Shown: positions 28,561 through 31,652 of the stretch, in pieces | Layout of the letters: each line of letters begins with the position of its first letter | Numbering within the stretch: position 1 is the first letter of the stretch | Assembly (NCBI GenBank): GCA_965218795.1 | Contig: OZ244653.1 | Span: forward strand, 2,560,001-2,624,000 | Length of the DNA: 64,000 nucleotides | Direction of reading: 5' to 3' | From: a bacterium | GTDB taxonomy: Bacteria; UBA8248; JACPRG01; G963555815 | The notes under the pieces: model-generated | Databases searched by the model: none | Told to the model about the DNA's origin: nothing | The model's input: only the letters and a program-made list of their open reading frames with translations | Program-made: the position numbers and the translations under genes

Positions 28561-29576
28561 TTAATTGCTGGTCGGCAGGAACTGGTTGGTGTACAGATCC
28601 TTCACCGCCACGGCGCATGGGTTCTTCCCCAGACCGCTCATGATCGCGTTCCGCGTGAACTTCATTTTCTTCTCGGTCATGTAGCCCAGCCCGTACTGGA
28701 TGGTCGTCTCCGTCAGCATGGAATTGTTGGCGGTCTGCCACTTGAGCATTTCCGACCGCTTCTTCGACTGCGGATTGTGCTTGAGAAGGATGTCCACGGC
28801 TTCCCCGGGGTTCTTGGAGGTCCAGGCCAGGCTCTTGAGGGAGGCGTGAATGAACCGACGGACTTGATCCGGGTTGCTCTGGATGCGTGTATCCAGGGTG
28901 TTCAACGCGAGGGAGTAAAGATTCATCCCCCAGTCGGAGAAAACAAGCCGGTGAATCTTTTTCCCGATCTTTTCGGCGCCCTCCACGATGTTGTGATCGA
29001 CGCTGGTGAAGGTGGCGATGGAATCCACCTTTCCCGCGTACATCGACGGGGCCATGGCCGAAGGAGGCATGGCCACCCATTTCACCTTGGCCATATCCAC
29101 TCCGTTCACTTTCGCAAAGAGAGGAAAGACCGTCCGCAGCGAAGACCAGACAGGAGCGCCGACCGTGCGGCCCTCGAGGTCTTTGGGTTTCATGATGCCG
29201 GAACCCGCCAGGGTGTAGACGACATTGAGGTCTTTCGCCAGAAAGACACCGATAGCCCGGATGCCCACGTTTTGCGCGCGCGCCTTGATGATTTCCCCCA
29301 TGTCCGCCAAACCGAATTCAGCCGCCTTGCCCACGACCGCTTTCACGGCTTTGGCCGACCCCGCTCCCTTGATAAAGGTCAGGTCCAGGCCGTTTTCCTT
29401 GTAGAAGCCCTTCTCCTTTCCGGCGAACCAGGCCGATTGCTGTCCGTCTGCCACCCAATTCAGGATGAAGCGGACCCCCTCTCGGCAGAGGCCGTGCCGG
29501 TCCATAGGATGAGTCCCAAAGACAGCATCGCCAGCGTCCCAAGACTCCGATAGGAGAGATTTCGGATCGGGTTCAT
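28561..29576 (-). pseudogene. ABC substrate-binding protein (NMT1/THI5-like) with a frameshift after the signal peptide
   Basis: Signal peptide MNPIRN...WTGTASA from ATG 29576 is out of frame with GVRFILNW...KGFYKENGLDL. One base is missing near the homopolymer at 29475-29479. Confidence 0.8.
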
Positions 29577-29598
29577 GTCGTCTATATGGACGCCTCCC

Positions 29599-29857
29599 GG
29601 TTTGCGAGGGACGATTTGGTGTTTCCGGACAACAGGTTGCAGTTCTATATGCGGCCTGTTTGTGCAGGGCTTGTGCCTGCTGGCCCCGATGGAATCTGCC
29701 GACCCGCGCCTCATTCTCCTTGAGGGCTTTTCGCCCCTGACGACATGCAGGCTTGGCGGATCGCGGTCTGACCTGTTGGCCATCACACCTTGTCGTACCT
29801 TGCGCAACCTTTCAGCGTGCCACCTCCTTGGTTGGTGGTTCCTGTCGCCAACCGCGC
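29599..29857 (-). ncRNA. Bridge/seek RNA of the IS1111 element
   Basis: Two stem-bounded internal loops match the flanking target (29739-29747, 29715-29721) and the donor junction (29689-29695, 29643-29651). Transcript ends unknown. Confidence 0.8.
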
Positions 29858-30671
29858 TTACGCGGCCTGACTGACAAAATTTGGTTGGTACGCCCGGACA
29901 TGGGCCAGCAAGGCCCAGATCGTGCGCGCCGTCTTGTTCGCCAGCGCAACAGCGACGACGTTCGCCGGCCGGCGCTCGGCCAGTCGCGCTCAGCACCCCG
30001 ACACCGGGGATCTCCGCGATCCGCTGGCTGGCCGCATTGTCCCGATGCCACAGCTTGAGCCGCCGCTCGATATCGCCAATCTCCTCGTCGAGCCGGGCCA
30101 CACGCGCCCACTGCTCACGCAAGGTCTCCACGACCATCGCCGGCAATCGTTCCGAGACCCGCTCAAGGGCCACGGCCATACCCCCCCCTCATACCGGCCC
30201 GGCCTTGCAGCATGACTTCGCCGTATTCGGCCAACAGACCGCGCAGGCCGTTGAATCTGGGCGGTGCGGAACTTCACCAGCTGCTGGCGCATGCGATGCA
30301 GCGCCAGGACCGCCTGTTGCTCCTCGCTCTTGAGCGCAACCGTCTTGATGCCGGGCTGCTGCACCGCCGTCCAGAGCGCGCGTGCGTCATGTACATCGCT
30401 CTTGTTGCCGCCCACGAACGGTCCTGACCATCTTTGCCGGCAGAAGCCTGACCGCGTGGCCCAGCTCCTGCAGCCGGCGCGACCAGTGCTGCGAGCCGCC
30501 GCACGCCTCCATGCCAATCAGGCACGGCGCGCGATTGGCGAAGTGCTCCAGGAACTTCGCCCGTGTCAGCCTCAGACCCATGATCTCGCCCGTCTCCATG
30601 TCGACCCAGTACAGTTGAAACACCCTTTTCGCCGTATCCACGCCCACGACCGTTCTGCCAGTCTTCATCAT
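29858..30671 (-). pseudogene. IS110/IS1111 transposase (DEDD recombinase), frameshifted and internally deleted
   Basis: VVGVDTAK, IGMEACG, NKSDVHDA, IPGVGVLSA, AVALANKTAR are spread over several frames. The usual GLVP..SSGG..RISKRG segment is missing at about 29981. Confidence 0.9.
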
Positions 30672-30890
30672 TGGACCCTCCGGTTGGCTTGGGAAGAGTT
30701 TATTCTTCCCCCTTGGGCACTGTGATGCCGTCGGCCCCCGTGGGTCCACTTTAGCCCTCTCGCCGTCCAACATCAGGGAGTGGGAGGCGTCCATTCCATT
30801 CTCCCTAAGAAGAATCCTCATTGTCGCTCCAGCCGCATGTGCGGGAACCTGCATTTCTGATCGTTGCTTCGTCATCAGGCCGGTCGGCCC

Positions 30891-31652
30891 TTACGTCATC
30901 ACGGCGCCGCCGTCGACGACAACGAGCTGACCGGTCATGAAGTCGCTGGCTGAAGAAGCCAGATAGAGCATCGTCCCCTGAACGTCACGGGGGAACTGGT
31001 CCCGCCTGAGACATCGCGTCGTTTGCGACCGCCCGGTCGCGTTTTCCAGAAACGGCTTCTCCATCTCCAGGACTTTCTCGCTCAGCGTAAACCCGGGGGC
31101 CAGGGTGTTCACAGTGATTCCAAAATCGCCCGTCTCCCGGGCCAGTGCGCGGGTCATCCCGTGGACGGCTCCTTTGGACGTCACATACTGAAGAAATCCG
31201 GAAATCCCCCTTTCCGCGGTCGGCGAGCCGATGTTGATAATCTTCCCGCTCCCCTGCTCCTTCATATGGGGGAAGACCGCCCGGCAAAGCAGAAAGATAC
31301 CCTTGACGTTGACGGCCATGACGCGGTCCCACTCATCGGCGGAGATTTCCCAAAACGGCTTGAAGGCGAGGTCCGCCCAGAGGGCCGCGTTGTTGACCAG
31401 GATGTCTACGCCCCCAAAGGCGCCGACGACCTCTTCCACCAGCCGCTGCACGGATCCCTCGTCCGACACGTCGATGTGAAATTCGGTGACTTGGCCGCCT
31501 TCGGCCTGGATCTCCCGCGCCGCAGGGGCGGCATCAATCAAATCCGCCATCGCCACCCGCGCGCCTTCGCCCGCCAGCGTCCTCGCATATTCCTTCCCGA
31601 TCCCGCGTCCCGCGCCCGTGACCAGGATCCGCGTTCCATCCAATTGACCCAT
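30891..31652 (-). CDS. Short-chain dehydrogenase/reductase
   Basis: TGAGRGIG, NNA, YVTSK, TGQLVVVDGG. Confidence 0.93.
   Translation of the reverse strand: MGQLDGTRILVTGAGRGIGKEYARTLAGEGARVAMADLIDAAPAAREIQAEGGQVTEFHIDVSDEGSVQRLVEEVVGAFGGVDILVNNAALWADLAFKPFWEISADEWDRVMAVNVKGIFLLCRAVFPHMKEQGSGKIINIGSPTAERGISGFLQYVTSKGAVHGMTRALARETGDFGITVNTLAPGFTLSEKVLEMEKPFLENATGRSQTTRCLRRDQFPRDVQGTMLYLASSASDFMTGQLVVVDGGAVMT

Follow-up and report, generated by a model that had tools for sequence, protein, structure and literature searches.

A dead IS1111-group copy and the Shine–Dalgarno and start-codon guides predicted in its 3′ RNA region

The region described here, positions 29599–29857 of a 64,000-nucleotide stretch of the bacterial contig OZ244653.1 (assembly GCA_965218795.1; the whole stretch is called the window below), is very probably the non-coding 3′ part of an insertion sequence (IS) of the IS1111 group, present here as a dead copy, whose bispecific RNA reads a Shine–Dalgarno (SD) sequence plus start codon in a design common to its clade. 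This reading is carried by the anatomy of the element, by a consensus structure of the RNA region, by guides that covary both with the flanking target DNA and with the element's ends, and by ATGs at the insertion sites that are the starts of genes. The object itself is an ordinary dead IS1111-type copy; what makes it interesting is that guides throughout the clade encode a choice of translation starts and that the register seems loose on one side of the site.

The element and its guide strands

The split target site, the element's ends and the segments of its putative RNA are arranged as follows.

30808–30802, minus strand: left target half TTAGGGA, which with the next GA gives the SD-like GGGAGA of the interrupted gene
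30801–30800, minus strand: left junction dinucleotide ('core') GA
30799–29583, minus strand: decayed copy of an IS1111-type insertion sequence of the IS110 family, 1217 bp
30799–30793, minus strand: IS start ATGGAAT
30794–30782, minus strand: left subterminal inverted repeat ATGGACGCCTCCC, preceded by a 5-nt extension ATGGA (30799–30795)
29763–29639, minus strand: putative bridge/seek RNA core, with closing stems, a target-binding internal loop and hairpin, and a donor-binding internal loop and hairpin
29747–29739, minus strand: target loop 5′ strand CAUGUCGUC, the complement of the right flank GACGACATG, which is made up of the GA of the junction, a CGAC spacer and the start codon
29737–29723, minus strand: target-loop hairpin
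29721–29715, minus strand: target loop 3′ strand AAGGAGA, in the sense of the left flank, an SD sequence ending in the GA dinucleotide
29695–29689, minus strand: donor-loop strand AUUCCAU, complementary to ATGGAAT at the left end of the IS
29651–29643, minus strand: donor-loop strand CAUAUAGAA, equal to the right end CATATA, GA and the first base of the left end
29598–29586, minus strand: right subterminal inverted repeat GGGAGGCGTCCAT, followed by a 3-nt extension ATA (29585–29583)
29589–29583, minus strand: IS end CCATATA
29582–29581, minus strand: right junction GA, followed by the right target half CGACATG (29580–29574)

The target segments follow each other in the RNA as GCCUG, CAUGUCGUC, hairpin, AAGGAGA and AUGAGGC. 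The right guide CAUGUCGUC is complementary to the right flank GACGACATG at 9 of 9 positions, and AAGGAGA agrees with the left flank at 6 of 7, so that both matches claimed by the original prediction, an earlier reading of this DNA from its letters, are confirmed. All of the strings that it named lie where it placed them on the minus strand; its donor-loop match of AUUCCAU and CAUAUAGAA to the joined ends is borne out by the strings themselves and by ends that covary in 41 elements, and its identification of an IS1111 bridge RNA agrees with the Pfam domains, the 13-bp repeats, the 3′ non-coding region and the order of the guide strands.

The window contains GACGACATG twice, one occurrence being the flank itself and the other its complement within the RNA region, against a chance expectation of 0.62 per window; this count alone is weak, as two or more matches also arose in 13 of 100 shuffles. 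That the match is not due to chance follows from the site of a second copy of the element, from the position of the segment in a loop of the consensus structure, from the covariation of guides and flanks, and from the agreement of the donor strands with the element's ends. The second copy, elsewhere in the same genome, has an identical RNA region with identical guides and is inserted at ATGGAGA|AACGATATG (longer flanks CAACATGGAGA and AACGATATGAATTCC), with an ATG just downstream. The reconstructed window site has one mismatch to the programmed 14-mer. Uninterrupted sites in the genome with no or one mismatch to this 14-mer number zero, and those with two mismatches number 47, versus 12 for the reversed pattern.

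Consensus structure of the RNA region

Homologues were collected with the C-terminal half of the transposase as query, and the best 80 of at least 553 relatives, at 63–88% identity, were retained. Of 82 sequences examined, 67 had the right-end motif, and these gave 53 unique non-coding regions. Forty-eight of these were folded together with RNAalifold; L009 and L048 were left aside for their insertions, and L038, L058 and L063 because rows almost identical to them were already included.

The resulting structure is closed by stems of 8 bp and 4 bp. One internal loop is formed by the target segments around a short hairpin, and a second by the donor segments around a stem and hairpin. Across the 48 homologues 97.7% of cells are paired, with compensatory changes in 14 of the 36 pairs; none of 500 column shuffles reached the observed values, and sliding the partners by 1–3 columns lowered pairing to 23–48%. 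Variability in the alignment is highest in precisely those columns that form the two strands of the target loop. The window RNA taken by itself also folds better than its shuffled counterparts (z = −3.6). A location of the matching segments in stems had been named as grounds for giving up the original prediction; the consensus puts them on the strands of internal loops.

No Rfam family matches the region, the sole match, to the small nucleolar RNA sR14, being a chance one that lies outside the element and scores 19.1 bits where the gathering score is 38, and release 15 of Rfam is evidently without a model that catches the RNA of this element. A conserved GAUGG(C) segment 5′ of both loops is complementary to CCAU(C) of the right subterminal repeat (alignment columns 8–13 with 225–228; approximately 29783–29778 with 29589–29586 in the window), and this pairing covaries in three elements, from GC to AU. 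The segment could be a third part of the RNA, one that reads the repeat, or it could belong to the fold of a longer transcript.

Target sites and guides across the clade

Flanks and loop strands were taken from every copy with a recognisable right end, and near-identical sites were collapsed to 57; the addition of further copies from five multi-copy genomes brought the set to 68 distinct sites, with both flanks known at 57. The longest contiguous match of the right guide averaged 6.53 nt to its cognate flank versus 3.14 nt to non-cognate flanks, a difference reached in none of 10,000 permutations. Over the 7 nt that precede the junction dinucleotide, the left guide and the left flank were identical at 283 of 399 positions, versus 164.7 ± 9.4 when permuted. 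Lineages with very different targets (for example GGGGGCCTT, GAGGGCCGCT, TTCCGATC and GAAGGCCATT) match their own guides over 8–10 nt.

An ATG starts 6–10 nt past the right end of the element at 56 of the 68 sites, compared with 10.2% of positions in the flanking DNA. One of the motifs GGAG, GAGG and AGGA stands in the 12 target-derived upstream bases at 41 of 57 sites (null expectation 8.6%), and the SD 4-mer and the ATG occur together at 37 of 57 (0.95%). The guides show the same bias: an SD 4-mer is present on the 3′ strand in 34 of 50 distinct target loops, AU at positions 2–3 of the 5′ strand in 43, and both in 30. Elements across the clade share the SD-like strand and an AU able to pair with the first two bases of ATG, while the bases that read the spacer are specific to each element and match its own flanks. 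In one genome nine copies share an identical RNA region, and eight of their nine flanks have ATG at an offset of 6–8 nt.

The ATGs at these sites are real gene starts, as indicated by Pfam matches that begin at the beginnings of the genes. Thirty downstream open reading frames (ORFs) reach 60 codons or more; Pfam matches at E ≤ 1e-5 were obtained for 18 of them, and at least eight of these matches start at profile position 1–5 within the first 30 residues; they include ABC_tran, ZnuA after a signal peptide, adh_short, DUF1993, ExbD and HTH_Tnp_1. Judged from record titles, the hosts are Alpha-, Beta- and Gammaproteobacteria, Acidobacteriota, Nitrospira and Actinomycetota bins.

The check called for by the original prediction, a comparison of homologue flanks with their guides, therefore gave flanks that are mostly SD plus ATG and that covary with the guides. 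Its proposal that the programmed target is a translation start holds for both copies in the genome, each of which separates an SD-like motif from the ATG of the gene that follows, and for the clade at the frequencies given above. The further suggestion that the lineage targets such starts rather than REP- or attC-type sites stands for most of the clade and fails for several sublineages that have been retargeted to other, often repeated, sequences. In a tree of the transposase region from 39 representatives, the 26 elements with both SD and AU lie on both sides of the midpoint root, with the remaining types interspersed; seven label changes at the least are required by the well-supported branches, in a tree that has no real root and in which the label of L020 is a false positive of the rule. 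The tree fits a prevailing SD–ATG state with repeated retargeting.

Two individual loci extend this picture. In L018 (1–2064) the gene split from its SD by an element is itself a transposase gene, one of the ORFs with Pfam matches described above, and belongs to another copy of the same family; the two copies form a head-to-tail pair, so that the target class of the element includes its own gene start. On a Paraburkholderia sabiae plasmid with relatives in 17 places, the copy examined (L088:3040–3260) has a non-SD guide and a left flank ATGAACCAA that matches its loop at 9 of 9 positions; its donor loop is interrupted by another IS110-family element, and it was left out of the counts.

Donor loop, junction dinucleotide and register

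The donor loop follows the ends of the element closely. Over 41 elements, the 3′ donor strand was compared with the final 5 nt of the right end followed by the left junction dinucleotide, and 286 of 287 positions agreed; between the 5′ donor strand and the left end, 261 of 287 positions were complementary, versus 250.5 ± 1.9 when permuted. The donor RNA changes in step with the DNA, where the end reads ACA for ATA or the dinucleotide AA for GA.

At 56 of 57 target sites the 3′ target-loop strand ends in the same 2 nt as the left junction dinucleotide. Right and left dinucleotides are equal at 35 of 57 sites, the first base agreeing at 53 and the second at 38. Among copies with identical guides the left register is constant. 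Shifts in spacing and mismatches of the dinucleotide on the right side suggest that the SD side fixes the crossover and that the start-codon side may be read more loosely. In the L010, L021 and L040 lineages the 5′ loop strand complements AC, although the 3′ strand ends in AA.

The likely mechanism is modelled on IS621 and ISEc11 (PMC11187229, PMC11208160); in it the RNA would be made and bound by the recombinase and recombination would run as it does in those elements. An active element would excise as a circle with the joined ends CCATATA-GA-ATGGAAT. The bispecific bridge/seek RNA, held together with the DEDD recombinase, would then accommodate the circle junction in one loop and the SD–spacer–ATG site in the other, where the 3′ target strand AAGGA-GA would read the left half (the Shine–Dalgarno sequence) and the 5′ strand would pair with the right half GA-CGAC-ATG (the spacer and start codon). 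The recombinase would exchange strands at GA. Since the target loop reads SD on one strand and spacer plus ATG on the other, the element would have landed between the SD and the ATG of a gene for a substrate-binding protein, in the same orientation as that gene.

Alternative explanations and points against the reading

An SD-like left guide might select the site alone, with the ATG present because it follows real SDs and the right-guide match in the window a coincidence. The fixed left register speaks for this account, as does the distance from the IS end to the ATG, which varies over 6–10 nt in the clade and by 1–2 nt among copies with identical guides. It is unlikely all the same, because the complementarity of the right guide exceeds what a shared ATG supplies: at ATG-type sites alone the cognate sum is 279 versus 148.6 ± 6.4 permuted (none of 10,000 permutations), lineages without ATG, among them L024, L034, L035 and L067, match their own right flanks over 8–10 nt, and the window guide matches its flank without a mismatch. 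Survival rather than choice could also produce the SD–ATG pattern, if elements inserted widely and persisted in this intergenic niche only. Insertion just upstream of genes spares coding sequence, and a sample of fixed copies cannot separate choice from survival; such a bias, however, cannot produce base-for-base complementarity between each loop and its own flanks, and the splitting of SD from ATG is unlikely to be neutral, the target gene in the window having since been frameshifted. We regard this explanation as less probable still than selection by the left guide alone.

The least credible of the alternatives, to which we give hardly any weight, holds that the boundaries were drawn too narrowly, so that the flank matches belong to the element and the complementarity is internal repeat structure. 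BLAST alignments between copies do extend 2–5 nt past the proposed ends. The flanks of the copies nevertheless differ outside the SD, dinucleotide and ATG positions, they are the starts of unrelated genes, and the ends are fixed by the subterminal repeats and the donor-loop strands.

Several observations weigh against the view that the RNA guided insertion to a translation start. The window copy is broken, and its function is predicted. A scan of 29500–30900 revealed no promoter-like site (a terminator scan of the same interval likewise found nothing), and in 1.8 kb compared the sole trace of RNA is one identical contig of 119 nt with a depth of 2, from one metatranscriptome, covering 29656–29771. 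This contig is too weak to claim expression, and carry-over of DNA is possible because the same segment also has the highest multiplicity in the DNA runs. An empty site was not found: no contig of three DNA runs joins across the IS, and the contigs of the flanks end 20–30 nt inside the IS ends. An orthologue of the target gene was present in one genome of the 40 relatives searched, at 73% identity and with a start that reads GAGGAGAAACGAGATG. With this distant orthologue alone, the sequence before insertion is inferred, and whether it held one GA or two is left undecided by the orthologue. In the minimum-energy fold of the single sequence the two target-guide strands partly pair with each other, and they are unpaired in the consensus fold alone. 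ATG is lacking at 12 of 68 sites and the SD 4-mer at 16 of 57. Under identical guides the matching flank segment lies 6, 7 or 8 nt from the IS end (in nine copies of one genome and four of another), a shift of 1–2 nt that the canonical model of a rigid register does not predict. Many of the sequences come from metagenome-assembled genomes, in which some frameshifts may be assembly errors, and the elements are related, so that permutation counts overstate independence; the guide–flank effect sizes are large despite this relatedness.

Class, decay and relatives of the window copy

The left and right 13-mers are perfect inverted repeats, inset by 5 nt on the left and 3 nt on the right, and subterminal repeats set in from the ends in this way are a hallmark of the IS1111 group. 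They are kept in homologues, with compensatory left and right changes in L024, L067, L083 and L086. The non-coding DNA amounts to 275 nt downstream of the transposase stop codon (29860–29858) and 128 nt upstream of the gene (30799–30672). A DEDD domain, Transposase_20, subterminal repeats (7–17 bp being the criterion), a long 3′ non-coding region and a two-strand guide RNA are all found, and at the level of sequence the element thus bears every testable mark of the IS1111 group, the state of an intact, active element alone being absent from the window copy. No ISfinder name is assignable, annotations read 'IS110 family transposase' only, and the half of the transposase used as query is at most 88% identical to any relative retrieved.

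30671–29858, minus strand: transposase pseudogene, DEDD_Tnp_IS110 and the rest of Transposase_20, broken by indels, a frameshift and a deletion

The breaks consist of single-base indels, a frameshift at a run of eight Gs (30188–30181) and a deletion of approximately 200 bp with its junction at approximately 29990–29981. The second copy in the genome, 1433 bp long and 98–99% identical, retains the approximately 200 bp absent here; relative to it the window copy has two single-base insertions and has lost most of the C-terminal domain to the deletion. A short-read contig that is identical over 29900–30012 crosses the deletion junction, so the deletion is not an artefact of the present assembly. 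The first reading frame of the second copy matches PF01548 (DEDD_Tnp_IS110) over residues 9–149 with E = 4.5e-11, and the window copy has the same region, interrupted by indels. The second copy also matches PF02371 (Transposase_20) with E = 8.2e-21, its translation GLVPRHSGTGG fitting the motif GL-P----S/T-G, a stretch that lies inside the deletion and is missing from the window copy. With most of its C-terminal transposase domain deleted, the window copy cannot move by itself.

The second copy has a single frameshift, at the eight-G run, and there are otherwise no near-full copies in the genome. This frameshift is common to both copies (30188–30181 on the minus strand of the window; approximately 2113–2120 in L002), which raises the question of how the element moved. 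Contigs of one sequencing run read one G more in this tract and those of another run agree with the window; the tract is either length-variable in the population or error-prone. The same genome holds three remnants of related elements (L005:1501–1677, L007 and L004), namely an RNA region with a different target loop and a lost end, an internally deleted copy, and a solo right end followed by GCCTGTCATG. In the runs X1–X3, compared over 29600–30800, the summed contig depth over the IS is 10–100 times that of its flanks (up to approximately 2500 versus 6–25) with many variant letters, and relatives of the window IS are accordingly very abundant in those communities.

Interrupted genes

29576–28561, minus strand: target gene for an NMT1/THI5-like substrate-binding protein (NMT1, E = 3.3e-40), with its ATG at 29576–29574

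The product of this gene has a signal-peptide-like N-terminus, after which the frame is broken at a run of five Gs (29479–29475). Contigs from three runs, belonging to three studies, match 29300–29601, two of them without a difference and one with a single changed letter; one of the runs may be the source sample. The gene downstream of the second copy encodes an oxidoreductase, with a Pyr_redox_2 match from residue 5. Transposase and target gene are co-oriented at all ATG-type sites, which follows from the construction of the flank analysis.

The insertion leaves the SD of the gene approximately 1.2 kb from its start codon, and the nearest SD-like motif in the right end of the element stands 16–19 nt from the ATG. 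Uncoupling of SD and start codon would lower translation of the target gene, and the five-G frameshift fits decay after the binding-protein gene was cut off from its SD.

Two further effects of the insertion were considered and rejected. In one, the SD of the host gene would drive an N-terminally extended transposase from an ATG at the start of the left repeat; this frame is open and in frame in both copies in the genome, but in only 11 of 40 unique left ends. In the other, the captured SD would be sequestered by CCUCCC of the left repeat, a pairing found in 37 of 47 junction RNAs but also in 659 of 940 controls (70%) made of random 14-mers from the same loci.

Wider significance

Somewhat short of an even chance, in our estimate, is the broader proposal that a cross-phylum clade of IS1111 type uses the universal signature of translation initiation as a portable landing pad. 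Its RNA would combine a strand that mimics the SD, a strand that pairs with the start codon and a few gene-specific spacer bases; the register on the SD side would set the crossover, the start-codon side would tolerate 1–2 extra or missing bases, insertion would silence the gene, and lineages would repeatedly leave for repeat sequences. Were this so, any new host would offer thousands of near-matches, and the 1–2-nt flexibility at the start codon would be a property that has not been described for bridge recombinases. A functional signal as target, in place of a repeat, would give a simple account of how such elements continue to find sites after moves between distant hosts.

Bridge/seek-RNA recombinases are being developed as programmable genome-editing tools, for which natural pairs of guide and target serve as ground truth, and the clade amounts to a natural reprogramming series of 50 different target loops, each fitting its own flanks. 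The shifted spacing under identical guides, if confirmed by experiment, bears on the prediction of off-target sites. In annotation, elements of this kind mark true start codons and flag genes that are probably silenced.

Comparison with known systems

IS1111 elements such as ISEc11, ISPa11, ISKpn4 and ISPst6 have a seekRNA that matches both strands of the target, with the complement of the top strand placed 5′, and each IS or group named there has its own target site (Siddiquee et al. 2024, PMC11187229). The window element resembles the group in its DEDD transposase type with PF01548 and PF02371, its subterminal repeats and its long 3′ non-coding region (PMC11187229, PMC11208160), and it resembles the seekRNAs in having the top-strand complement 5′ of the bottom-strand segment and donor segments that match the joined ends (PMC11187229). 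Unlike the members named in that paper, its target is a functional signal common to most genes, of which only the spacer is element-specific. Targets of IS1111-type elements include REP sequences, and attC sites and the ends of Tn21 are reportedly targets of other members, going by titles in reference lists.

In IS621 the left end codes for the RNA, which thus lies upstream of the recombinase gene, the subterminal repeats are 2–3 bp long and the core is CT (Durrant et al. 2024, PMC11208160). The window element shares with IS621 the bispecific guide with target- and donor-binding internal loops and the 2-nt core common to donor and target; in each loop of both, the left half and core are read in their own sense by one strand, and the core and right half are complemented by the opposite strand. 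It differs in that its RNA is placed 3′, the order of the strands is reversed and the core is GA or AA.

The literature searched, a single library, held no paper linking IS1111 elements or bridge RNAs to Shine–Dalgarno or start-codon targets, and such targets go unmentioned in the main texts of both bridge-RNA papers (PMC11187229, PMC11208160), whose supplementary target logos may hold a case. None of the texts consulted links the target of IS900 to a guide RNA. IS900 belongs to the IS110 rather than the IS1111 group and is not known to have long subterminal repeats. According to the title of a 1997 paper it 'targets translation initiation signals'. The target motif of IS900, an IS110-family element of Mycobacterium avium subsp. 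paratuberculosis, is given as CATGNNNNNNTCTCCTT, and this signal reportedly feeds hed, a host-expression-dependent ORF on the strand opposite the transposase (PMC8141618). The reverse complement of this motif, AAGGAGA-N6-CATG, is near-identical to the AAGGAGA-CGA-CATG of the window element. If the motif is written in the sense of the transposase, the target gene of IS900 faces the opposite way, whereas the window element is co-oriented with its gene. Insertion between SD and start codon, as in IS900, is found in the window copy, the second copy and 37 of 57 sites of the clade; no antisense, hed-like use of the signal was found here, with IS900 compared by its published description. Translation-initiation targeting therefore has, as far as the IS900 description goes, a clear precedent in the wider IS110 family, and comparison of the motifs may link the long-known target of IS900 to the guide-RNA logic of that family.

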